Shown here: in pieces, positions 10,475 to 31,816 of the stretch | Layout of the letters: each line of letters starts with the position of its first letter | How positions within the stretch are numbered: position 1 is the stretch's first letter | NCBI GenBank assembly: GCA_964563165.1 | Contig: CAZLWA010000043.1 | Coordinates: 9,372 to 73,371, forward strand | DNA length: 64,000 nucleotides | Direction of reading: 5' to 3' | Source: an uncultured Bacteroidota bacterium | Lineage (GTDB): Bacteria > CLD3 > SB21 | The notes under the pieces: model-generated | What the model was told of the DNA's origin: nothing | The model's input: the letters and a program-made list of their open reading frames with translations, nothing else | Database searches by the model: none | Position numbers and translations under genes: made by a program

Positions 10475-11500
10475 TTACTCGAAATCTCTTTCCAAGTAGT
10501 TATTAAAGGTTCTTGATTTGACGCTTTTGTTTTGAATTTCCTGAGTCAATTTTCTGGAAAATTCTTTCGCGGCGTCGTAGCCGTAAATTTTCAATAATTG
10601 ATTGAGCGCAATGGCTTCCGCGATCACGGTAATATTTTTTCCGGGGTAGATCGGAAGTTTGACCACCGGAATGTTCACGTTCAAAATTTTGATCATTTCC
10701 TCGTCCAGGCCCAGGCGTTCGTATTCTTCTTTGCCGTCCCACAGCTGCAGGTCAATTTGAACCTCCAGCCGCTTTTGCACGCGAACGGCGCGAATACCGA
10801 ACATCTCACGCACATCGAGAATACCGACACCGCGGATCTCAATAAAATGTTTTAATTTGTTATGTCCGCGCGCCATCAAAATATTCTCTGAAAACCGGCT
10901 GATGATAACCGTATCGTCTGCGACGAGACGGTGCCCGCGCTCGATCAGGTCCAATGCGATCTCGCTCTTACCGATACCGCTTTTGCCGGTGAACATCATG
11001 CCGATGCCGTAGACATCGACCATAGAGCCGTGAAGAGAAATTTCGGGCGCAAAGATTTCTTCAAGATAGCTGCTGATGATGTGGATCGTATCCGTGGTGG
11101 AAAAATTAGTAATGACCAGGGGTACGTTCTTGCGCTTGCACAGATCCAGCATCGCGGGCAGCACTTTATTGCCGTTGGTGATAATGATGCACGGCATGTC
11201 GAATTGAAACAGTTTTTCGAGCGAATGGGTTCGCTCGTCCTCGGACAGGCTCAGCAGATAATAATTTTCCGTGTTGCCGAGAATTTGAATTTTATCATGG
11301 GTGAAAAGTTTGACGAAACCGGCTAAGGCAAGCCCGGGGCGGTGCAGATCCCGCTGGGAGAAAAATTTCTTCTCAATGCCGTTCGTGACCAAAAAATCCA
11401 GATGCATCCGTTCACGCAAGTCGTCAAACAGCTTTCGAACCGCCATTTTTTCAACTTGTTTGATATTACCTTTTTCGGTTTTGAAGACGATTTCTTCCAT
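10475..11500 (-). CDS. hprK: HPr(Ser) kinase/phosphorylase
   Basis: LHRPGLALAG, HGSMVDVYGIGMMFTGKSGIGKSE (Walker A), LVADD, IEIRGVGI, PGKNITVIAE. Confidence 0.97.
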   Translation of the reverse strand: MEEIVFKTEKGNIKQVEKMAVRKLFDDLRERMHLDFLVTNGIEKKFFSQRDLHRPGLALAGFVKLFTHDKIQILGNTENYYLLSLSEDERTHSLEKLFQFDMPCIIITNGNKVLPAMLDLCKRKNVPLVITNFSTTDTIHIISSYLEEIFAPEISLHGSMVDVYGIGMMFTGKSGIGKSEIALDLIERGHRLVADDTVIISRFSENILMARGHNKLKHFIEIRGVGILDVREMFGIRAVRVQKRLEVQIDLQLWDGKEEYERLGLDEEMIKILNVNIPVVKLPIYPGKNITVIAEAIALNQLLKIYGYDAAKEFSRKLTQEIQNKSVKSRTFNNYLERDFE

Positions 11501-14746: not shown

Positions 14747-17134
14747 CTACTTCGGGTTTCCGATCATGACATAGGGCGCCCAGAAAAAAGGATGAATATG
14801 GAAATCACCTTTACGAATCAAAGTGATTTGCGCCTGGCGCATGGCTTCGGACTTTGGCAGCCCTTTTTTCAAATTACTGAAAAAATTCGTCATGATAATT
14901 TTCGTCGCCTGATCGTCCACCGGCCAAAGCGTAGCGACCGTGGTTGGCGCCCCGGCTATTGCAAACGCCCGGGAAAGACTGATCAACTCGACTCCCGTAG
15001 CGCTCTTCCCCATGGATGTATTACACGCGGACAATACCGCCAATTGATTCTTGTCTTTCAGAGGCAAACGGAGAATTTCACTGATAGTTAATTTATCGTC
15101 GTCATTCGTAGATTTATTCGGCGCCGTCAACAAAAACGATTTCTGCGGTTCATCACTGGACAAGAATCCGTGCGTCGCAAAAAGAACCGCCTCGTAGTTG
15201 CCGACGAGCGTCTTAATTTTATCTTTGGTCGCATCCAGATTTTTATACAAAGCTGCGTTGCTATAGGAACTCTGGACGGCTTTTGCTTCCTCTTCCGCAC
15301 CGGCCAAGCTGCCGTCCGGATTGGCAAAAATAAGCACATTAGAAATTTGTTTCCCTTTGGTTTTCGAAACCAGATCCATAAGCGTGGCCGCGGTCAGGTA
15401 ATTTACCGCTTTTTTCTCGATCAGGAAGTTAAGGTCTCCGTCTTGCGTTTCCGTCGCTAAACACTGAAATGGCAGATAGTATAAACTGCCCGCAGGAATG
15501 ATCGTGACATTTTTGATCTTATCATCCTTAATGGTTTCCCAAACCGGCAAAATTAAATAATCATTCAGTTTCGTCATGATTTCTCGGAACGGTTTCGCAT
15601 GACGATCGGTAAAACGAGAACTTTCACCTTGCTTCCAACTAACCATGCCGCTCAATCCGCGCGACATCCAGGATGCAATGTCATTTATGAAATAGCGGTA
15701 GCGCGTGACGAGTGAATCCAGCTCTTTAACGCCGACCGGAACGGATTTCGCTTCGATCTTATCTTTGGTGATCATGAAAATATACAACGCGTCGTCGGCC
15801 GGGAAGTATTCGAGCAGCACCACGTCATCGGCAAGCTGTTTTTGAAGATCGCTCAGCTGGATCGGATCCACTTTGATGACCTGATAAATATTCGGATATT
15901 TGGTTTCGAGATCGATCATGAGCGCATTGAAATCGCCCTGGTTTTTAGTTAACGTTTTACTCAGGTTGTCGATTTTTGCTTTGTCCTGCTTTTCGATCGG
16001 CTTCGCTTTTTCTTCCGTCAGTTGTTTTTGCAAGTCGTCATTGGCGTTCTGAAGTTGTTGAACCTTGTCCACGGCTTTTTGTTCCGTTTTATCCGTCACC
16101 TGCAATTTGTCCGCGTTGAGTACGTCGTTGGAAATTTTCGCTTTGTTGCGTTCGATGTATTGGAAGGCTTCCGTATTACTGCCCGCGTGCCTGAGCAGAG
16201 AGATGAGCCGCTTGTAAACCGGGTTCTTATCTTTCAGGAAACTCTCAAAAAAATCTTTCCGTGTGAAATTGCCGCGCAAACCTTCAATGTAATCAACCGA
16301 TTTTTTCAAGGCCGCAATGGCATTTTTCATGTCGTCCGCAGCTTTTTTCATATCCCCGCGAATTTCATTCTGCTTCATGGACGTTTCATAGATCGTTCCG
16401 ATGAACGAATAGGTGCGCCACAGTCCTTCACGATCGCCGATATCTTCAAGAAGGGACGCGCTTTTCTGATAGTATTTCCGCGCGCTGTCCATGTCGCCGG
16501 TTTTCATGTAGATGCGGGCCAAATTGGCAAGATCGTACGCAATACCGCCTTTGGAGCTGACCTCGGTGTGCAACGTCATCGCCTGATTCAGATAGTCCGC
16601 GGCCTGCTGATACAGCTCCGCTTCAAAATACATCGTGGCGATATTGTTTAGGTCGTTTCCTGCGCCGGCCTTATCTTTGAGTTCTTCATGAAATTGTTTT
16701 GCTTTTTCGTGAAATGCGGAGATCGTTCCGATATCTTCCAGGCTGAGGCTCTGGCCGGTCTTTTTCAGGTCCGCTTCTTTTACGCGATACGCCGAAATAC
16801 CCCAATTGCCCAACGCACTCGCCGCACCGGATTTGTTCTTCGTTTCGACAAATAAGGGCACAGCCGTTTTGAAATAGTCCACCGCCTTGTCGTGCTGGTT
16901 CAGCAATTGAAAAACCAACCCCAAATAATTATTCGCATCCGCCATGCCGGACCTGTTTTTTGCCGAAGTGTATGCGGTCAGAGCGGTTTGAAATGAATTT
17001 ACCGCCTGCTCGTACTGACCGTTCTTGAAGGCCGCGGCGCCGTTTTTAAAATCGTCTTGTCCGAAAACCACGGGGCGGTTCCCCAATAGTACCATCAGAC
17101 TCAGCATCATGCCGGACGTTAAGAATCTTCTCAT
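14747..17134 (-). CDS. Exported TPR-CHAT domain caspase-like cysteine peptidase
   Basis: 795 aa; signal peptide ending VFG|QDD; about 5-6 TPR units; coiled coil; CHAT motifs LLEYF, IIPAGSLYYLPF, FATHG (His655), LSACNT (Cys704), ATLWPVDD, HPFFWAPYVMIG. Confidence 0.93.
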   Translation of the reverse strand: MRRFLTSGMMLSLMVLLGNRPVVFGQDDFKNGAAAFKNGQYEQAVNSFQTALTAYTSAKNRSGMADANNYLGLVFQLLNQHDKAVDYFKTAVPLFVETKNKSGAASALGNWGISAYRVKEADLKKTGQSLSLEDIGTISAFHEKAKQFHEELKDKAGAGNDLNNIATMYFEAELYQQAADYLNQAMTLHTEVSSKGGIAYDLANLARIYMKTGDMDSARKYYQKSASLLEDIGDREGLWRTYSFIGTIYETSMKQNEIRGDMKKAADDMKNAIAALKKSVDYIEGLRGNFTRKDFFESFLKDKNPVYKRLISLLRHAGSNTEAFQYIERNKAKISNDVLNADKLQVTDKTEQKAVDKVQQLQNANDDLQKQLTEEKAKPIEKQDKAKIDNLSKTLTKNQGDFNALMIDLETKYPNIYQVIKVDPIQLSDLQKQLADDVVLLEYFPADDALYIFMITKDKIEAKSVPVGVKELDSLVTRYRYFINDIASWMSRGLSGMVSWKQGESSRFTDRHAKPFREIMTKLNDYLILPVWETIKDDKIKNVTIIPAGSLYYLPFQCLATETQDGDLNFLIEKKAVNYLTAATLMDLVSKTKGKQISNVLIFANPDGSLAGAEEEAKAVQSSYSNAALYKNLDATKDKIKTLVGNYEAVLFATHGFLSSDEPQKSFLLTAPNKSTNDDDKLTISEILRLPLKDKNQLAVLSACNTSMGKSATGVELISLSRAFAIAGAPTTVATLWPVDDQATKIIMTNFFSNLKKGLPKSEAMRQAQITLIRKGDFHIHPFFWAPYVMIGNPK

Positions 17135-17192: not shown

Positions 17193-17789
17193 CTAACTGG
17201 GTGTGGTAAGCTGTCTTTTTTTCTCTGCCAGAAAGAATTCTTTGAAGCTCTTTTTGAATTGTTCAACGTCGGAACCCAGGAATTTGGATTTGGTACCGAC
17301 TTCAACCACGATACGCTCGATCTCCGAATATCCGTCATCCAGCGGCATTTCAACCGTCGCGAAGGTGGTATCGCCCTTGTCCGATTTGGAATACTCGGAA
17401 ATTCGGCTGTTGCGGAGCGTCGTGGATTTTTTAAACGCGTCTGTAATCTGATTGCAATATTGCGCCACATCCACGCTGCCTGCAAAAAGGTCTTTTTGAA
17501 CCGACGAAAATTTTTCCACCATCCGGCATGCATCGGCGCTCAGCATGGTGATGATATTTTCCCGCGCTTTGAGTTCCGCCTTCGAACGCGCCATGGATTC
17601 GGTTTTCAGCGTCGAACTGCCTATTGCTTCATAGTCTCCGGATTCGGTGGATCCGGACTGCATTTTTGAATCGGAGGCGGTAGACGATGAATCGGCCTTT
17701 ACACCGTCTTTTTGGGGTTCCTGTTTTTTTGCCGGGGGGCAGCCTGCCAGGATAAAACCTAGTAAGAAAATCCAGTTTATTTTTTTCAT
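17193..17789 (-). CDS. Lipoprotein with LPP20-like domain
   Basis: Lipobox ILAGC; Ser-rich linker; YEAIGSS..MARSKAELKARENI pattern shared with neighbouring LPP20-like domains; GGAG SD. Confidence 0.7.
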   Translation of the reverse strand: MKKINWIFLLGFILAGCPPAKKQEPQKDGVKADSSSTASDSKMQSGSTESGDYEAIGSSTLKTESMARSKAELKARENIITMLSADACRMVEKFSSVQKDLFAGSVDVAQYCNQITDAFKKSTTLRNSRISEYSKSDKGDTTFATVEMPLDDGYSEIERIVVEVGTKSKFLGSDVEQFKKSFKEFFLAEKKRQLTTPS

Positions 17790-17832: not shown

Positions 17833-19398
17833 CTATTTCAACGCTTTGCTCAAAGCGTCATAAACTTCTTTGGAAGCTTTTTTACTCAAATTCTGAATGG
17901 CAATGATCCCGGCTTTTTCCTTCGCGCCGATCGAGATCCCTTTTTCCCTCTGAATGTCGCTGTTGGCGATGGTCTTTGAATTGTCGAGATCGATACAGCG
18001 GATCGAACAGTCCGCCCAGGCCGATACGCGATTTCCGCTGCCGCCGCCGTATGGATTATCGGAGCCGCCGACCGATTCCATCGCTTTCACCGTTCCGATG
18101 ATCAGCACATCGGCGACCGACTTTAACGCGCTCGAAACCGCATCGTCATTATTGGTTTCGGCAGAAGATTGCGCCTGCTGTTTACTCACGGCCTTGAAAA
18201 CTTCACTTTTATCAATCACCTTGAATTTGTTGGAGACCAGCAGCTTAACGATATCGCCTTCGACGATGGAGTTCGGCTGATCTTTTTCCATATTCGATTC
18301 AAATATCAAAATGACGATCTTGGTGATCGCCGAACCCTTCGCGGTAAACGTAAAGTCTTTGAAGACGAGTTTTGCCTTCTGAACCGCGCCGGGAAGATGG
18401 TTTTTGAACGGTTCAAATTCCAATGCGTTCAATCCTACGCGAATTTTATTCTGTCCGCTCGGATTCACAGTTTCTACGGAATGGATGGTAAATTTCGCAA
18501 CCCCGTCGCCGCCGGTCTGCGCTTCCGCGTCGGCCGTTACTACGGTCGGCGTAACGGAAGAACAAACCAGATTCGCGTTTTTTACCGGCTGCACATTGCC
18601 GTTGTCGTCATACACTAATTTAGCTGACAGCGGTTCTCCCAACGGTTCGCCCTTGGTGCCTTTTTGACCGTCACCGCCGGCAATCTCCACGCGCATTTTT
18701 CCGAGCAGATTTTTCAGCTGCGTATCGAATGTTGCCCTGACGGATACGGTTTTGCCCGTGCCTTCGATATCGCCCTCGATCGGTTCTTTATTGATCAATT
18801 CCGCGACTACGACCTCTTTGGCGCCCGAAAAATACTGATCCAACGCGATATAAAAATTTCCGTTTGCTTCCGCCGCGTGCGCCGCCTGGTAATAGGTTTT
18901 GGCGATGTTAAGCGCTTTCTTCAGCCGTTCGGCAAACTGGCGATTGACTTCTTCGATGGAAATTTCACAATACGCGTAGTGTTTTTTGTCTTTTTTCTCG
19001 TCGCGGTAAAATTCCACTTTCATATTCTTCAGCGTTTCATTTGAAAAAGCCTCCGATACGGAACTGAAACTTTCACTGACATCACTGACGCCGTTCTTGG
19101 TGCTTTCTTCTGAAACGTTTTTGATTTTGCTGGTAATCTCGGACCGGATAGCGCGAATCACCATGGCGCGGGCCTCTCCTTCGGATTTTTGCGCATCGGC
19201 GGATTGGTCTTTGGTCAGCGGAATCGCGCCCAGGCCCTGATAATAACCATCGCGCTTCGGCATATTGGGAAGGCTTTTTTTCCAATCCACGCTGCCGCCC
19301 GATTGTTTCGTCTTGTTCTTTTGCGCGAAAATATGTCCTTGCGGGAGGATCACAAGTATGGTCATACATACTACCGTGGCAAAAAGTAATTTTTTCAT
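17833..19398 (-). CDS. Exported multidomain protein: LPP20-like + Ig-like + CsgG/FlgT-middle-like alpha/beta domain
   Basis: Signal peptide IFA|QKN; YYQGLG..EARAMVIRAIRSEITS (LPP20-like); GGDGQKG..PLSAKLV..QPVKNA..TGGDGVAKF (Big-1-like); KFKVIDKS..ADVLIIGTV..IRCIDLDNSKTIA (CsgG/TolB-N-like). Confidence 0.7.
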   Translation of the reverse strand: MKKLLFATVVCMTILVILPQGHIFAQKNKTKQSGGSVDWKKSLPNMPKRDGYYQGLGAIPLTKDQSADAQKSEGEARAMVIRAIRSEITSKIKNVSEESTKNGVSDVSESFSSVSEAFSNETLKNMKVEFYRDEKKDKKHYAYCEISIEEVNRQFAERLKKALNIAKTYYQAAHAAEANGNFYIALDQYFSGAKEVVVAELINKEPIEGDIEGTGKTVSVRATFDTQLKNLLGKMRVEIAGGDGQKGTKGEPLGEPLSAKLVYDDNGNVQPVKNANLVCSSVTPTVVTADAEAQTGGDGVAKFTIHSVETVNPSGQNKIRVGLNALEFEPFKNHLPGAVQKAKLVFKDFTFTAKGSAITKIVILIFESNMEKDQPNSIVEGDIVKLLVSNKFKVIDKSEVFKAVSKQQAQSSAETNNDDAVSSALKSVADVLIIGTVKAMESVGGSDNPYGGGSGNRVSAWADCSIRCIDLDNSKTIANSDIQREKGISIGAKEKAGIIAIQNLSKKASKEVYDALSKALK

Positions 19399-19434: not shown

Positions 19435-20949
19435 TTAATTTGAATCTAATTTGTCCAGAGCGGCATTAAGCTTGTCCAGAGCCGCTTTGGCTTTTTCGCG
19501 TCCTGTAGCGAGAATTTGCTGCGCGCCGGTTTCATCTTTTTCAGCGGGCAACTCAATGATCTGCGAAGCTTTCTTTTTGAGCTTGGCTATCATACCCCCG
19601 GTATACAGCCGTCCCAGCGAGTAGTACGTGTCCTTTCCTTCCGCGGAAGTCTTCGTAAAGGTCGCTACGATTTGCGATCCTTCCAGGCTTACGTCCGTCG
19701 CTTCTTTGGTCATCTGGCTCAAATAGTCATTCTTCGGCCGACCGTCCAGGGCGTCGCTGTTTTCCTGCATCCACGCGGAGGTCACGGATTCGATCTGCAC
19801 CGAAACCGTTTTGGCTAATTTGGTTCGCGCCGCACCGCGCGCTTTTTCGAGACCTTGAGTTTTGGAAAAATATTTTCCTTCGTCGATACCGACGGCGAAC
19901 ACAGCGCCCTTATCCTGCGGAATCTTTGAGATCCAGACCGGAAATCCGTTCTTAGATTTCAAATAATCCCGGTTGATCAACTTGCCCAATTTGTCCTTCA
20001 ACCCCTTGAGCGCTTTCGTGTCTTTGACCTTCGACTGTGCTTTTTCACTGATTTGACCGATCAGCTGGGAAAGCGACATGCGTGCCAGGGCGTAATGCCA
20101 TTTGGTCGTTCTGTCGTACCACGTTTCCACGATCTGCGACCCGCTCAGTGTGGCTTCGGAAACAGTATTGGACATTTCGTCCAGGAAGCTTCTTTCTAAT
20201 CCGTACGAGTCGCTGCCCTCGTTCGATTCATACCAGTCGGTCAGGACCGCGTTCACTTCCGTCTTCATCGTAGCGGCCATTTCTGCGCGCGACTTATCTT
20301 TGGCGGATTCGCGCCCATTCACATAAAAATAAAATTTTTCAGTAATGCCCAGGGCATACAGGGCGTCGTCTTCTTCCGGCAGAACGTTGATCCACACGGG
20401 TTTGTCTTTTCGAATGTACGATTTCGAATCGCCTAAATTTTTTAATGAAATCTCTAATTTTTCAATTTTCTTATTTTTTCCGTCCGGGCCTTTTTTCGCT
20501 TCTTCTATTATTTTCTTTTGTATCCCGGCGATCGCTCCGCTCAAAGGCATTTCGGCTAAGGCGTACGTCAATCCTTCGGGATCCACCCATCGTTCCAGGA
20601 TCTTTGCATTGCGGACGGATGCCGTGACATCGTCGTCGATACTTTTTTCAAGCTCAGACACAAAGCCGCTCTGCATCGTTCCCGACCATGACGCAGCAAT
20701 GGATTTGACGTTCACTTTGATCGTTTGCGCTAATTCCATCCGCGCGGCGCTGTCCGCCGCGGCTTCGCCGGCCTTCTTTTCAAAATAGCGATTGACCACG
20801 CCCACGGCGTAAATTTTTCCGTCCGCCATCGGCAATTCATTGGCCCACTTCGGCGCCGGTTTGTTTTGTGAAAAAAGAAGCCCGGAAAAACCGAAGAAAA
20901 AAACCATGACGAAATTCGGCAAGTTTCCCGTATGAAAAAAACCGGTCAT
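19435..20949 (-). CDS. Exported protein with three tandem LPP20-like domains
   Basis: Signal peptide LFS|QNK; three repeats starting PKWANELP..IYAVG, PVWINVLP..LYALG, PVWISKIP..VFAVG, each with A..AR.E/KLA..V and a downstream YAL/YSL strand; GAGGAG SD. Confidence 0.8.
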   Translation of the reverse strand: MTGFFHTGNLPNFVMVFFFGFSGLLFSQNKPAPKWANELPMADGKIYAVGVVNRYFEKKAGEAAADSAARMELAQTIKVNVKSIAASWSGTMQSGFVSELEKSIDDDVTASVRNAKILERWVDPEGLTYALAEMPLSGAIAGIQKKIIEEAKKGPDGKNKKIEKLEISLKNLGDSKSYIRKDKPVWINVLPEEDDALYALGITEKFYFYVNGRESAKDKSRAEMAATMKTEVNAVLTDWYESNEGSDSYGLERSFLDEMSNTVSEATLSGSQIVETWYDRTTKWHYALARMSLSQLIGQISEKAQSKVKDTKALKGLKDKLGKLINRDYLKSKNGFPVWISKIPQDKGAVFAVGIDEGKYFSKTQGLEKARGAARTKLAKTVSVQIESVTSAWMQENSDALDGRPKNDYLSQMTKEATDVSLEGSQIVATFTKTSAEGKDTYYSLGRLYTGGMIAKLKKKASQIIELPAEKDETGAQQILATGREKAKAALDKLNAALDKLDSN

Positions 20950-21103: not shown

Positions 21104-21679
21104 TTAGTTATCCGCGTTTGTTTTTTCCCATTTCGAGATGGCGCTGTCGAGGGCTTTGAGCGCTTCGTCCGCGCTGGCTTTGACGCCTTTGATCTTCTTT
21201 GCCGCGACGTCTTCCGTAACTTTTTTCTTAAATTCGTCAATGAGCGAATTCTTTTTCATTACAACTTTAGCGTAAATTTTAATGCGGTTGCCGTCAGCCT
21301 GGCCAAACGGCGGCCAATATTCTTCAATATGGGCTCCGCTTAACGTGACGTTGGTTACGCTTTGCGTGACTTCCTGAAAATATTCCTGCCGTGCGGTTTC
21401 GGAAACTTTTTCCGTCGAAGCTTCTTCCATAAAACTCGTCGTCAAACTTTTGATCTGGGTCTGAAGGGTCTCCGCAATGCGCTTGCGGCCGTCCAGATCG
21501 GCCTTGGCTTTGGCGCTGCGCTCATCCAGACCTTCTCCCAATCCCGCTACGACGATCGCATCTTCATAAATGCCGGACTTCGTAACCCATTTCGGAGCGC
21601 CCGCAGACGACTTTCCGCCGCTGCAGCCGACAAGATACCCCAGCGGCAGCAGTAATAATAAGTTCATAAATAATTTCAT
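21104..21679 (-). CDS. LPP20 family lipoprotein
   Basis: Lipobox LVGC; APKWV, AGLGEG, AKAKADLDGRKRIAETL, LSGAHIEEYW; paralogue of 21766-22446. Confidence 0.85.
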   Translation of the reverse strand: MKLFMNLLLLLPLGYLVGCSGGKSSAGAPKWVTKSGIYEDAIVVAGLGEGLDERSAKAKADLDGRKRIAETLQTQIKSLTTSFMEEASTEKVSETARQEYFQEVTQSVTNVTLSGAHIEEYWPPFGQADGNRIKIYAKVVMKKNSLIDEFKKKVTEDVAAKKIKGVKASADEALKALDSAISKWEKTNADN

Positions 21680-21706: not shown

Positions 21707-21746
21707 AAAAAAAATAACCGTAGTCCCTGATTTCGGGACTACGGTT
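21707..21746 (-). terminator. Intrinsic terminator after the first gene of the LPP20-CHAT cluster
   Basis: Perfect 12-bp stem AACCGTAGTCCC (21716-27) / GGGACTACGGTT (21735-46), 7-nt loop, followed on the minus strand by A then T8. Confidence 0.85.
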
Positions 21747-21765: not shown

Positions 21766-22446
21766 CTAGTTATCATCTTTCTTCGTCTCATCCTTCATGT
21801 CGTCTCCGCCGCCTTCGGTGGATTCATCAAGCGCACCGTTATTCGATTTCTTTTCCCATGCGCCAATAGCTTTGTCCAGTGATTTCAATGCGTCGTCGGC
21901 GGACATTTTCACGCCTTTGATCTTATCTTCCACAATGGCTTTCTGCATTTCTTTCTTATACATGTCTACGACGTTGGATTTTTTCAAGATCATTTTGGCG
22001 TAAACATGATACTTGCCGTCTTTCCCTTTTTCCAAGGGTCTCAGCGGCCAATATTCTTCGGATTGCGATCCTTCGATGTATTTCTTGGTAATGGCTTGCG
22101 TGATGCTTGACATGTAGTCTTGCGCAGCGCCCGTCGAACCTTCTGCGGTTGTGGTATTGGCTTCTTCATTGAAGGCCGTGGTCATGTTTTTAATCTCGGT
22201 TCCGAGGACTTGCGCGATCTTAACGCGGCCGTCCAGTTCCGCTTTGGTGATGGCATTTTCTTCTTTAAAGCCGTCACCGCTGCCTGCAGCCACGATCACA
22301 TCCTCATACAGACCGGGTTTGTTGACCCACTCCGGCGGATCGTTTTTGCCTCTTTTTTTCTTTTTCGCCATGGCGTCATGATTAACCAACGCGATCGCCA
22401 ACAAGGCAATCATAGACAAGAAAAGGATTCTGCCTAACGTCTTCAT
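21766..22446 (-). CDS. Exported LPP20-like protein (no lipobox)
   Basis: Signal peptide ending AMA|KKKKRGK; PPEWV, AGSGDG, AITKAELDGRVKIAQVL, IEGSQSEEYW; acidic tail; AGGAG SD. Confidence 0.85.
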   Translation of the reverse strand: MKTLGRILFLSMIALLAIALVNHDAMAKKKKRGKNDPPEWVNKPGLYEDVIVAAGSGDGFKEENAITKAELDGRVKIAQVLGTEIKNMTTAFNEEANTTTAEGSTGAAQDYMSSITQAITKKYIEGSQSEEYWPLRPLEKGKDGKYHVYAKMILKKSNVVDMYKKEMQKAIVEDKIKGVKMSADDALKSLDKAIGAWEKKSNNGALDESTEGGGDDMKDETKKDDN

Positions 22447-26936: not shown

Positions 26937-28034
26937 TCAGAAATTCAAACCGATGCTGTAAAATTGCGAACCGTCGCGCGGATTGAACTGGCTCCCCAAT
27001 CCTTTCGTATACGCAAAATCTATCTTAAAAACGGAGTACTTGATTCCTGCCCCGAACGTAAGATTATAGAGTTTGCCTGCTAAATCCAACGAGGCGCCCG
27101 AGCGCAGCGCCAGGAAATCGGAATAAGAATATTCCGCGCCCAAATTGTGCCCCAGCCGGTGCCAGCCGTTATTTCCCCACGTGCTGATGATTGCGGAATG
27201 GGAAAGATGACCGAGATCGAGAAGCGGATCGGAAGTTTTCGACCGTCCGCGTACGATCTGACGATTGATCTCGTAGGCAACTACTACGGTATTGAATTCA
27301 GATTTATACACCGGATACGAAACTCCGAAACGCAAATTCGTCGGAAGCGGATCGGCTTGCGCATCGTCGATATAGGCTATTTTCGGGCCGATATTGGCCA
27401 AGCTGGCGCCGAAGGTCAGGTCTTTCACTAAGAAATTTCTCTTCATCACCCCGATATCGATGGCCACGGAACTTCCCGTTCCTTTCTGTGTCTCACTCGT
27501 ATTGCCGGTCCTGTTGGAAAGGCGGCTGTAGATGTATTTGAGATTGCCGCCGACCCCCAGATCTTCGCTGAGTTTCGTGGCATAGGTTAAGCCGAAAGAC
27601 AGATCGAAACTGCTTACGGTACCTAAGTAAACGGCCTGTTCATCTGTGATATCCTGATCGCCTAAATTGAAAAAAGTGAAATTCGCTCCCACAACACCAA
27701 CGTCCGGCACATACCATGTGAACGATCCGTAATCATAGAACAGATCGTTGAGCTTGAATTGCGGCAGCCAATTCACGTGCATGAACTGTAAATCGCGAGG
27801 ATGCTGTTCATCCTGAATGAATCCCAACGCACCGGGGTTCCAATAAATGGCATTGGCGTCTTTGACGGTGGACACACCGGTTTCGCCCATGCCGTTATGG
27901 CGGGCACCGGGGGGAATTAAAAGAAACAAGACGCCGGCTTCGCTGGTTTGTGCAAGAACCGGCAGCGACGGCATCGTAAATGCCAGGCAAAAGACAAATC
28001 CGATATATTTTATTTTCAATGTAGTGTGCATCAT
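26937..28034 (-). CDS. porV: PorV family outer-membrane beta-barrel (type IX secretion shuttle-like)
   Basis: FLLIPPGARHNGMG..DANAIYWNPG, DPLPTNLRFG, C-terminal Phe; start moved to ATG 28034 with GAGAGG SD. Confidence 0.8.
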   Translation of the reverse strand: MMHTTLKIKYIGFVFCLAFTMPSLPVLAQTSEAGVLFLLIPPGARHNGMGETGVSTVKDANAIYWNPGALGFIQDEQHPRDLQFMHVNWLPQFKLNDLFYDYGSFTWYVPDVGVVGANFTFFNLGDQDITDEQAVYLGTVSSFDLSFGLTYATKLSEDLGVGGNLKYIYSRLSNRTGNTSETQKGTGSSVAIDIGVMKRNFLVKDLTFGASLANIGPKIAYIDDAQADPLPTNLRFGVSYPVYKSEFNTVVVAYEINRQIVRGRSKTSDPLLDLGHLSHSAIISTWGNNGWHRLGHNLGAEYSYSDFLALRSGASLDLAGKLYNLTFGAGIKYSVFKIDFAYTKGLGSQFNPRDGSQFYSIGLNF

Positions 28035-28349
28035 AGTCAACCTCTCAATCCTGTAAAAAAAATTACATGAACATAAACGGCGATAGTCTAACAATATTCT
28101 CTCGTTCTTCTCCTTTTGCAATTTTTTTTAAGTATAAAGAATTCCGCCATTCATAGCAAGTTGAATTTTGTACAAAAACGGAGCCGGAATTTTTAATCAG
28201 TAATTTCTCGAAAAATATTTTATACAGCTTCTCGTAACAAATTTCTGATAAAATCTCCTGGAGGATTCATGGGGTACTGGGTTATAGGCAAACTAATATA
28301 TGAAAACAAAACGGCAGTGTCAAGAAATTCGTTCGAGCAGTAAAATGAC

Positions 28350-30431: not shown

Positions 30432-30905
30432 ATGCCGACACCCAAAGAAAAATCATTGGAAGATCTGATCAAAAGCGTAGAAATTTTTGACGGATTGGAG
30501 ACGCGCGATATTAATAAGGTCCTCAAAGTCGCGGCCGGAAAAAAATACGAAAAGGATCAGATCATTTTCAATGAAGGCGATCTGGGGGATTGTTTCTATC
30601 TGATCATCGAGGGCTCGGTGCGCGTGATCAAGAGATTGGACCGGGATAAAATTGAAGAAGTGGCGACGCTCAAAACGGGAGATTATTTCGGCGAGATGTC
30701 ATTGCTCGACGGCGAACCGCGCTCCGCTTCCGTGATCGCATTGCAAACGAGTAAACTGCTGGAAGTGAAGAACAGCCAATTTATCAAGATCATCATGAAC
30801 GATGATAATTTCGCACGTAAAGTTCTTTGGGCTTTTTGTACTACCTTCGCACGGCGGCTGCGGGCGACCAATGCGCTTCTCGGACAATTTGGAAAGAAAA
30901 ACTAA
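30432..30905 (+). CDS. Stand-alone cyclic-nucleotide-binding domain protein
   Basis: IIFNEGDLGD.FYLIIEGSV, GDYFGEMSLLDGEPRSASV; 157 aa, no HTH. Confidence 0.9.
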   Translation: MPTPKEKSLEDLIKSVEIFDGLETRDINKVLKVAAGKKYEKDQIIFNEGDLGDCFYLIIEGSVRVIKRLDRDKIEEVATLKTGDYFGEMSLLDGEPRSASVIALQTSKLLEVKNSQFIKIIMNDDNFARKVLWAFCTTFARRLRATNALLGQFGKKN

Positions 30906-31816
30906 AAATCAAACGCCGCACTGATCCGGTGCGTAGCGCCCAGAGAATTTGAAAACGGCATGTAGCCGTAATCCATACGGATGTTTTTCATCACCGTGAG
31001 TCCCAATCCGGCCGAAATGCCCCGCGTATCATAACCGAATTGATATCCCGCGCGCACAAAGACCATATCTTTGTAACCGAATTCCGTTCCTAGGTGTACT
31101 CGAAAATTATCATGGATCGGTTTTACAACGTCTGCCGCGACCGTCCAAATGTTTTTCGATTCCTTATCATGAAAAATATCGTACGCCGATCCGAATTTCA
31201 ATACGGCCGGCAACGCGACTCTACTGCTGATAAATTTTCCCGAAAATCCGAAATTGGACATGACGAGACCCAGCCGCAAACGATCGCCCGTGTTGAAATA
31301 ATCAGCCGTATGCCAAACACCGAGGTCGAAACCCACGGCCGATACGCTGTTTTGAATGCGTTCATAGATATAATTAACCGTAATACCTGCAAACCAGCGC
31401 GCGTTGATCTTCCGCGCGTAAGTGATACCCAATTCAATTTCGTGCGATGAAAAATATGCCGTGGGTGTCTCGGAAGGAATTTCTCTCTGCTCGATGCCGT
31501 CTACCCCGGTGGAGATATAATGCACGCCAAAGGCATTGGAGCCGCTAACGAACTTGGCGGCAAAAAAATTATGTTGGACATTTTCGATCCAGTGATTGTA
31601 AGTAAACAAAACGCTGCGGCGCTCCTCGACGGCTAATCCCGCAGGATTCCAATACGTAGCCGTTGCGTCGGTCGAGAGGACCGTGGCGGCCTCACCCATA
31701 CCCGCTGCACGTCCGCCGATGCCGATCTTTAAGAAAGAAAACCCCGTTTCTCCCGTTCCGGCTGAAAGCAGAGAAGGGTATCCTAAACAAACAATTAATA
31801 TGAATCGCAGTTTCAT
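30902..31816 (-). CDS. PorV/UPF0164 family outer-membrane beta-barrel (second copy)
   Basis: FLKIGIGGRAAGMGEA..DATATYWNPAGL, alternating beta-strand pattern, C-terminal FDF. Confidence 0.85.
   Translation of the reverse strand: MKLRFILIVCLGYPSLLSAGTGETGFSFLKIGIGGRAAGMGEAATVLSTDATATYWNPAGLAVEERRSVLFTYNHWIENVQHNFFAAKFVSGSNAFGVHYISTGVDGIEQREIPSETPTAYFSSHEIELGITYARKINARWFAGITVNYIYERIQNSVSAVGFDLGVWHTADYFNTGDRLRLGLVMSNFGFSGKFISSRVALPAVLKFGSAYDIFHDKESKNIWTVAADVVKPIHDNFRVHLGTEFGYKDMVFVRAGYQFGYDTRGISAGLGLTVMKNIRMDYGYMPFSNSLGATHRISAAFDF

Follow-up and report, generated by a model that had tools for sequence, protein, structure and literature searches.

Where does a caspase-like protease of the CHAT family act when its gene begins with what reads as a secretion signal, and which proteins might direct it there? 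Most of what is known of CHAT proteases concerns the cytoplasm, with separase, HetF, craspase and gasdermin activation as examples. The question is raised by a single gene within a 64,000-nucleotide stretch of an uncultured Bacteroidota genome (contig CAZLWA010000043.1, positions 9,372 to 73,371; the whole stretch is called the window here), which encodes an array of tetratricopeptide repeats (TPRs) followed by a CHAT peptidase domain. It closes an operon whose five upstream genes, on the same strand, all encode products that carry signals for signal peptidase I (SPI) or for lipoprotein processing, together with LPP20-like modules. A first-pass annotation, made from the letters of the sequence, had proposed an extracytoplasmic, ligand-activated caspase-like protease. 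The computational analysis reported here makes it probable that the protein is exported, periplasmic and catalytically competent. Our preference, which is a slight one, is for the fuller explanation that it is a Sec-exported, soluble periplasmic TPR-CHAT protease directed by its co-encoded LPP20-fold partners. The features discussed are collected in Table 1.

The peptidase domain matches the whole of the CHAT family in Pfam (PF12770, residues 518-793, profile positions 2-289 of 289, E 3.5e-63), with 214.2 bits against a gathering cut-off of 24, and residues 32 to 236 contain matches to several Pfam TPR families. The dyad had been described as intact, with His655 and Cys704 at the codons given in Table 1, and the sequence confirms this: the motif typical of a CHAT domain is present, namely His and then Cys, each following a hydrophobic strand. 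A search of about 5.8 billion proteins returned 21 orthologue clusters, which align end to end at 60-86% identity, and the next matches fall abruptly to 28% or less. Both residues are invariant in 22 orthologues, and the motifs around them, FATHG and LSACNT, vary little or not at all. In an alignment of 68 sequences that includes relatives at 20-28% identity, the two residues account for 2 of only 5 invariant columns. From this conservation we infer catalytic activity. Constraint is not confined to the peptidase, as the middle region (residues ~287-517) is strongly conserved across the orthologues, and Asn residues 69, 110, 164 and 204 are invariant, at equivalent positions of four TPR repeats, in the 22 orthologues.

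The AlphaFold2 model, built on the same 68-sequence alignment, has a mean predicted local distance difference test score (pLDDT) of 88.8 and a predicted template modelling score (pTM) of 0.85. It consists of a detached N-terminal helix of lower confidence (residues 2-18), paired TPR helices from residue 26 to about 286, a helical middle region with two long helices (349-376 and 385-412) and a small three-stranded sheet (438-465), and an alpha/beta CHAT domain formed by residues 518-793. His655 and Cys704 lie in loops directly after strands 649-653 and 698-701. The initial description of a TPR array and a coiled coil preceding the peptidase therefore stands for the TPRs, which both Pfam and AlphaFold2 recover, while its "coiled coil" corresponds to the two long helices of the model.

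Table 1. Features of the TPR-CHAT gene, its operon and other genes of the window (coordinates are window positions; a slash marks a predicted cleavage site).
Feature	Coordinates	Strand	Basis and remarks
Exported TPR-CHAT gene	14747..17134	(-)	Open reading frame (ORF) list, Pfam CHAT and TPR matches; 795 aa and a stop codon
Signal peptide, residues 1-25 (MRRFLTSGMMLSLMVLLGNRPVVFG)	17060..17134	(-)	Predicted SPI cleavage before Gln26
TPR array, residues ~26-286, paired helices	16277..17059	(-)	Pfam TPR_12, TPR_1, TPR_2 and others; AlphaFold2 helices
Middle region, residues ~287-517	15584..16276	(-)	AlphaFold2 secondary structure; strong conservation among orthologues
CHAT peptidase domain (clan CD, caspase-like), residues 518-793	14756..15583	(-)	Pfam PF12770; Foldseek
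Catalytic His655 codon (CAC), motif VLFATHG	15170..15172	(-)	Sequence, orthologue alignments
Catalytic Cys704 codon (TGT), motif AVLSACNT	15023..15025	(-)	Sequence, orthologue alignments
p198 lipoprotein, lipobox LAG/C, LPP20-like domain	17193..17789	(-)	Directly upstream of CHAT
p521 exported protein	17833..19398	(-)	AlphaFold2 pLDDT 78.5; Foldseek; two genes upstream of CHAT
p504 exported protein, three LPP20 units	19435..20949	(-)	Pfam LPP20 E 1.4e-20, three stretches; hhalign, three matches to p191/p226
p191 LPP20-like lipoprotein, lipobox LVG/C	21104..21679	(-)	Pfam, signal reading
Terminator-like hairpin between p226 and p191	21716..21746	(-)	12-bp stem, 7 GC pairs, T run
p226 exported LPP20-like protein	21766..22446	(-)	Pfam, signal reading; poly-Lys tract just past the signal peptide
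Type IX secretion cargo, FG-GAP protein with Por_Secre_tail C-terminal domain, 1063 aa	23698-26889		Pfam
PorV-like gene (type IX secretion)	26937-28121		Pfam
PorV-like gene (type IX secretion)	30902-31816		Pfam

That the protein begins with a cleavable signal peptide, as had been proposed, is supported by the conservation of this segment. The N-terminus cannot be longer than annotated because an in-frame stop lies two codons 5' of the ATG (17134), and the motif AGAGG is found about 10 nucleotides upstream of the start. Sec substrates of SPI have a positive n-region, a hydrophobic h-region of 7-15 residues and small residues at -3 and -1. The window protein, MRRFLTSGMMLSLMVLLGNRPVVFG/QDD, divides into MRR, FLTSGMMLSLMVLLG and NRPVVFG/QDD, which represent a positively charged n-region, a 15-residue h-region and a c-region with V at -3 and G at -1. 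Signal peptides were called with a crude heuristic of our own together with conservation; because the heuristic miscalls about one protein, GlmS, among the cytoplasmic proteins of the window, it is crude but not indiscriminate. It calls an SPI signal in 21 of 21 orthologue clusters. In all 21, the N-terminal segments have the same character and unrelated sequences, and such retention of character while the sequence varies is a pattern typical of signal peptides.

Furthermore, 21 of 22 sequences have, where cleavage is predicted, a small residue and then Gln, 3-8 residues ahead of the first TPR helix. A canonical A-x-A is found in the c-region of most orthologues. Gln at +1 of the mature protein is the Q-rule described for SPI substrates of Bacteroidetes (PMC5837995, PMC10653852), and other predicted SPI proteins in the window also have Q at this position. 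Read from the sequence, the CHAT protein is almost certainly exported by Sec to the periplasm. The conserved signal with its Q-rule residue, and the SPI or lipoprotein signals of all five co-operonic proteins, likewise favor the earlier view that the protein is extracytoplasmic.

The remaining sorting signals narrow down its location. The mature protein has only two Cys residues, Cys704 and Cys558 (the latter missing from orthologue P0021), versus 15 in UvrA; residues 1-557 contain none, so that there is no lipobox with Cys at +1, and lipoprotein sorting was rejected on this basis. No second hydrophobic segment or membrane helix is seen in the mature sequence. The organism has a type IX secretion system, as is evident from the two PorV-like genes and the Por_Secre_tail cargo in the window, and the CHAT protein was considered as a further cargo and rejected, as Pfam finds no C-terminal Por_Secre_tail domain in it. 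The CHAT match reaches residue 793 of 795, only two residues before the C-terminus, in agreement with the earlier statement that no C-terminal sorting domain is present. Twin-arginine translocation was also rejected: the window protein has RRFL without the spacing of the consensus S/T-R-R-x-F-L-K, and this route is unlikely because a twin arginine occurs in no orthologue. Because lipobox, membrane helix and type IX C-terminal domain are all missing, a soluble periplasmic location is the best reading, and the protein is likely, from its sequence, to be soluble in the periplasm rather than located at the surface; its initial placement as probably periplasmic can thus be kept.

The partner genes, rather than the signal peptide, are the informative part of this locus. 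Seven LPP20-like modules are distributed over the five partner proteins, with three in p504 and one each in p191 and p226. Directly upstream of CHAT, p198 has a disordered linker of about 40 residues before its LPP20-like domain, which matches the p191/p226 profile with an hhalign probability of 96.7% (E 3.6e-10). This fast-evolving lipoprotein ends in a strongly conserved tail, F-x-E-F-F-L-A-E-K-K-K-x-L-T-x-P-S (FFLAEKKKxLTxPS), which is a candidate TPR ligand or cleavage site. The model of p521 comprises an LPP20-like N-domain, a helical hairpin, an immunoglobulin (Ig)-like sandwich and a C-terminal alpha/beta domain resembling CsgG, GNA1162 and HpaA, and its Foldseek matches are Lpp20, HP1454, FlgT, HpaA, CsgG and GNA1162. 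By sequence (Pfam, hhalign), the N-terminal LPP20 match of p521 is weak, and its loops 95-113 and 445-454 are conserved and modelled with low confidence. Sequence searches of the PDB with p521 and p504 gave nothing significant, and homologues of p521 were found only in this clade of uncultured Bacteroidota. LPP20, FlgP and FlgT share a common SHS2-like fold, and the periplasmic flagellar protein FlgP assembles into concentric rings (PMC12222027). The partners resemble this family (PF02169) in carrying the LPP20 domain, whereas nothing in the context of the operon is flagellar, and p521 carries Ig-like and CsgG/GNA1162-like domains in addition.

The linkage of these genes was followed in orthologous loci, which come from metagenome-assembled genomes titled uncultured Bacteroidota bacterium or bacterium. 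The operon is kept in every orthologous locus with enough flank, and p198 adjoins CHAT and p521 lies two genes upstream in every orthologous locus, including L081. Identity to the window protein across these loci is 66-73% for CHAT, 66-73% for p521, 70-81% for UvrA and 38-47% for p198; CHAT and p521 are therefore conserved about as well as UvrA. The housekeeping flanks uvrA, hprK and purM are syntenic across the clade, and because much of the conserved order also takes in uvrA, hprK and mlaD, the synteny of the operon may be simple inheritance. Locus L081 is stronger evidence of linkage than this clade-wide synteny: its CHAT protein is 60% identical and its flanking genes are entirely different, and a p521-like gene (515 aa), a p198-like gene (196 aa) and CHAT are contiguous. 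The core of the operon is the trio p521-p198-CHAT.

Two freshwater-sediment libraries labelled as RNA-Seq have contigs across the operon. The depth of the RNA-labelled contigs is about 22 over p191 and p226 and 5-7 over CHAT; it stays at about 0-2 across the greater part of uvrA, reaches about 4 towards the 3' end of that gene, and is 0-2 over purM. This uneven coverage differs from the flat depth of about 15 in a DNA library of the same kind of sample, and one contig reaches from the end of p521 through the whole of p198 into the start of CHAT. These data suggest that the operon is co-transcribed in situ. The depth over p191/p226 is about 4-fold higher than over the genes downstream (~22 to ~5), and the terminator-like hairpin between p226 and p191 may attenuate read-through and explain this drop. 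A scan for sigma-70 promoters gave nothing above shuffled expectation, and such a scan is probably unsuited to Bacteroidota promoters.

How might these components work together? Following Sec export, SPI would most likely cut between Gly25 and Gln26, a site that we infer from the c-region and the Q-rule, and the new N-terminal Gln would be cyclized to pyroglutamate. The mature protein, a clan CD protease, would stay in the periplasm and would rest there in an inactive state, as other TPR-CHAT proteases do when resting. In a PDB sequence search with phmmer, the best matches of the CHAT protein were the TPR domains of LGN/Pins, covering the TPR part only; this likeness and the invariant Asn in four repeats fit a groove that binds an extended peptide. 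In LGN complexes, the TPR groove binds an extended peptide. The LGN-like groove and the middle region could accordingly accept such a peptide from a co-encoded partner, with the p198 tail, the disordered linker of p198 and p521 loops 95-113 and 445-454 as candidate ligands or substrates. Partner binding would then either dock the enzyme at an envelope scaffold or present the partner for cleavage. Taken by itself, this partner-directed mechanism is tentative, and activation of the protein by a ligand, which was part of the initial proposal, would follow only from analogy with craspase, separase and DdvA. Co-encoded substrates are the norm for characterized CHAT proteases (Csx29 with Csx30; DdvA with itself). 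A more specific version, which we consider rather unlikely, is that the trio p521-p198-CHAT forms a self-contained periplasmic proteolytic switch, in which the protease is docked through its TPRs on an LPP20/SHS2 lipoprotein scaffold under the outer membrane and cleaves that scaffold upon an envelope signal. If this were true, no exported CHAT protease before it would have had a defined substrate, and the trio would be a new module for envelope remodelling or sensing.

Comparison with known systems places the protein among the TPR-CHAT proteases by fold. The top Foldseek match of the model is Csx29 (8EEY_B, E 2.3e-15, TM score ~0.5), and DdvA (8RW5, E 4.3e-13) and separases are also among the best matches. 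Because phmmer matched no CHAT chain in the PDB, the kinship with Csx29, DdvA and separase is seen by fold only. Csx29 has the same order of TPRs, middle region and CHAT domain, and its substrate Csx30 is encoded in the same operon (entry 8EEY is the Cas7-11 complex with Csx29 and Csx30); however, Csx29 acts in the cytoplasm, where RNA activates it by way of Cas7-11. Identity with Csx29 was rejected, as the window protein scores 35.9 bits with NF041237 against a cut-off of 300, and no CRISPR genes, Cas7-11 or linked CRISPR array were found with the operon, the neighbors being LPP20-like genes, uvrA and purM. Separase and cyanobacterial HetF share the combination of a helical-repeat arm and a CHAT/C50 caspase-like domain, and both are regulated, substrate-specific proteases, but they are eukaryotic or cytoplasmic, are much larger and have 10-13% identity over the fold alignments.

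A parallel in location is DdvA of Myxococcus xanthus (M. xanthus), a transmembrane anti-sigma factor whose periplasmic TPR-CHAT module has a canonical dyad in a resting state, as resolved by cryo-electron microscopy in 2024 (PDB 8RW5, 8ROT; PMC11506125). Signal-induced autoproteolysis has been proposed by its authors (PMC11506125). DdvA and the window protein have a periplasmic TPR-CHAT module and the canonical His-Cys dyad in common. DdvA differs in being a dimeric, single-pass membrane protein of ~1000 aa with a cytoplasmic zinc-binding anti-sigma domain, in having no three-helix active-site motif and in being paired with DdvS, a sigma factor of the extracytoplasmic function (ECF) group, whereas the window protein has only a 25-residue signal peptide before its TPRs and LPP20-fold partners. 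A DdvA-type anti-sigma factor was rejected as an identity: only 25 residues come ahead of the first TPR helix, the stop lies two codons upstream of the start, and the protein has neither the N-terminal zinc-binding anti-sigma domain nor the transmembrane helix. Pfam scans of the operon and its flanks found no gene of the sigma-70 family and no anti-sigma neighbor.

Several observations weigh against a periplasmic protease directed by LPP20-fold partners. The LPP20 linkage is limited to one fairly narrow clade, and part of the synteny may be inherited. No LPP20-like gene was found near 67 distant CHAT loci when their ORFs were searched with phmmer and a custom LPP20 hidden Markov model. In addition, most orthologues have A-x-A in the c-region, and NRPVVFG of the window protein is less canonical. 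The sediment libraries are labelled "METAGENOMIC RNA-Seq" and were read as assembled contigs, and DNA carry-over is possible because the labels are ambiguous and only assembled contigs were read. Finally, protease activity of DdvA has not been demonstrated (PMC11506125).

Other locations for the protein have to be considered in the light of this evidence. If its N-terminal segment were left uncleaved, it would tether the TPR-CHAT module to the periplasmic face of the inner membrane, giving a DdvA-like topology without the cytoplasmic anti-sigma domain. Such an anchor would be in keeping with a c-region in which Arg and Pro occur and the last residue is Gly, not Ala, and with the membrane anchoring of DdvA, the sole solved periplasmic TPR-CHAT protein. 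However, an h-region of about 15 residues with T, S and G is short for a membrane helix, and orthologues with canonical small residues at -3/-1 and then Gln bear the signature of Bacteroidetes SPI substrates, which makes an anchored protein improbable. Similarly low odds are given to a surface-exposed or released protease that would, for example, ride on its lipoprotein partners to the surface or into outer-membrane vesicles and act outside the cell. Gingipains and the clostripain-like C11 enzymes are familiar examples of secreted clan CD proteases, and a type IX system is available in this organism, but the CHAT protein has neither a Por_Secre_tail nor a lipobox. Moreover, an acidic stretch after the lipidated Cys marks surface lipoproteins in Bacteroidota, and neither p198 (C-PPAKKQE) nor p191 (C-SGGKSS) has this export signal. 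Very improbable is a cytoplasmic protein whose hydrophobic N-terminus is a start-codon artefact. Met9, Met10 and Met14 are possible internal starts; against their use stand the upstream stop codon, the signal-like segment in all 21 independently called orthologue clusters and the predicted export of every operon partner.

The same locus could also be read as serving another function. An envelope-located effector of phage defence or cell suicide, triggered by infection and destroying envelope proteins in the manner of craspase, Borvo and the CHATs of gasdermin systems, would accord with a weak PADLOC match to BovA (30 bits), with the control of a defence island by DdvA (PMC11506125) and with the position of distant exported TPR-CHAT genes beside ECF sigma/anti-sigma pairs. 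Nevertheless, the flanks are the housekeeping genes uvrA, hprK and purM, syntenic across the clade; no other defence genes or marks of mobile elements were seen there; the GC content of the locus equals that of the rest of the window; and the partners have no PADLOC match except for p521, at 13 bits. Membership in a known anti-phage system was rejected, as PADLOC gives only BovA and a generic TPR model, and a defence role is unlikely overall. A non-catalytic scaffold, in which the TPR-CHAT protein would only organize the LPP20 proteins and the dyad would be a relic, draws on the finding that DdvA dyad mutants have no phenotype under the conditions tested (PMC11506125). Relics are rarely as constrained as His655 and Cys704 are across the 68 sequences, and with FATHG and LSACNT invariant or nearly invariant in all orthologues, this reading appears more improbable still. 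The preferred explanation thus remains that of a soluble periplasmic protease associated with LPP20-fold partners.

How unusual, then, is a CHAT protein with a signal peptide? At 50% identity, about 108,000 clusters carry a match to the CHAT domain, and the family studied here makes up a single one of them. Of the 149 nearest representatives, 97 look full-length (starting with Met and at least 600 aa), and 83 of these 97 (86%) have SPI- or lipoprotein-type N-termini by our heuristic; the seven representatives that were checked with Pfam are all TPR-CHAT proteins. About 40 of the 61 more distant matches of the first orthologue search also look exported by the same heuristic. Exported CHAT proteins are therefore common, and for a CHAT protein to carry a signal peptide is nothing out of the ordinary. 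The premise of the first-pass annotation that characterized TPR-CHAT enzymes are cytoplasmic is not supported as it stands, as it misses DdvA (PMC11506125), and the contrast that it implied is overstated because DdvA is known and exported relatives are abundant. In our literature search, TPR-CHAT and the periplasm appear together in the DdvA paper only, and no paper connects CHAT with LPP20 in any system.

Other TPR-CHAT proteins with a signal peptide or lipobox, TPRs and a C-terminal CHAT domain are widespread in Bacteroidota, Gemmatimonadota, Acidobacteriota, Cyanobacteria and other phyla. They differ from the window protein in usually having 900-1800 aa, longer TPR arrays and other partners, and none has LPP20 neighbors. 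What is new here is the soluble form with obligate LPP20-fold partners, which is specific to the clade. The sampled CHAT branch mostly looks exported, and for none of its members is a substrate known or an activity demonstrated. A compact, strongly conserved module of three genes, for a soluble TPR-CHAT protein and its two LPP20-fold partners, is a tractable entry to periplasmic caspase-like proteases and their gating by TPRs.

Some further observations concern the operon and its surroundings. One contig of the RNA-labelled run X3 has a 1-nucleotide insertion (T) at window position 16955, inside the CHAT ORF; it is not present in the DNA run X1 and probably reflects a minor variant or a mistake made in assembly or sequencing. 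In p226, a poly-Lys tract directly follows the predicted cleavage site (AMA/KKKKRGK in the window, AQKKKKKKKK in the orthologues of L004-L010); such a tract also occurs in p521 orthologues, and so strong a positive charge close behind a Sec signal is unusual. The p521 protein has 521-522 aa in the window, L001 and L010, and about 720 aa in most orthologous genomes (L002-L009, P0089-P0105), where an extra p191/p226-like LPP20 unit is found at the N-terminus. An HPr kinase/phosphorylase-like gene (10475-11500) lies between uvrA and an MlaD-like gene, and all three are syntenic across the clade.

Among the distant loci, a recurrent module was seen in Gemmatimonadota (L015 8346-14358; L024 8999-14562; L036 6961-13437; L052 7859-13941). 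It consists of an ECF sigma factor, a zf-HC2 anti-sigma factor, an exported TPR-CHAT protein and a lipoprotein in which a Big_5 Ig domain is combined with a beta-propeller (RCC1, PQQ or PD40); Pfam supports the sigma factor in L036 and weakly in L052, and the anti-sigma factor only in L052. This module looks like DdvA split into separate genes.

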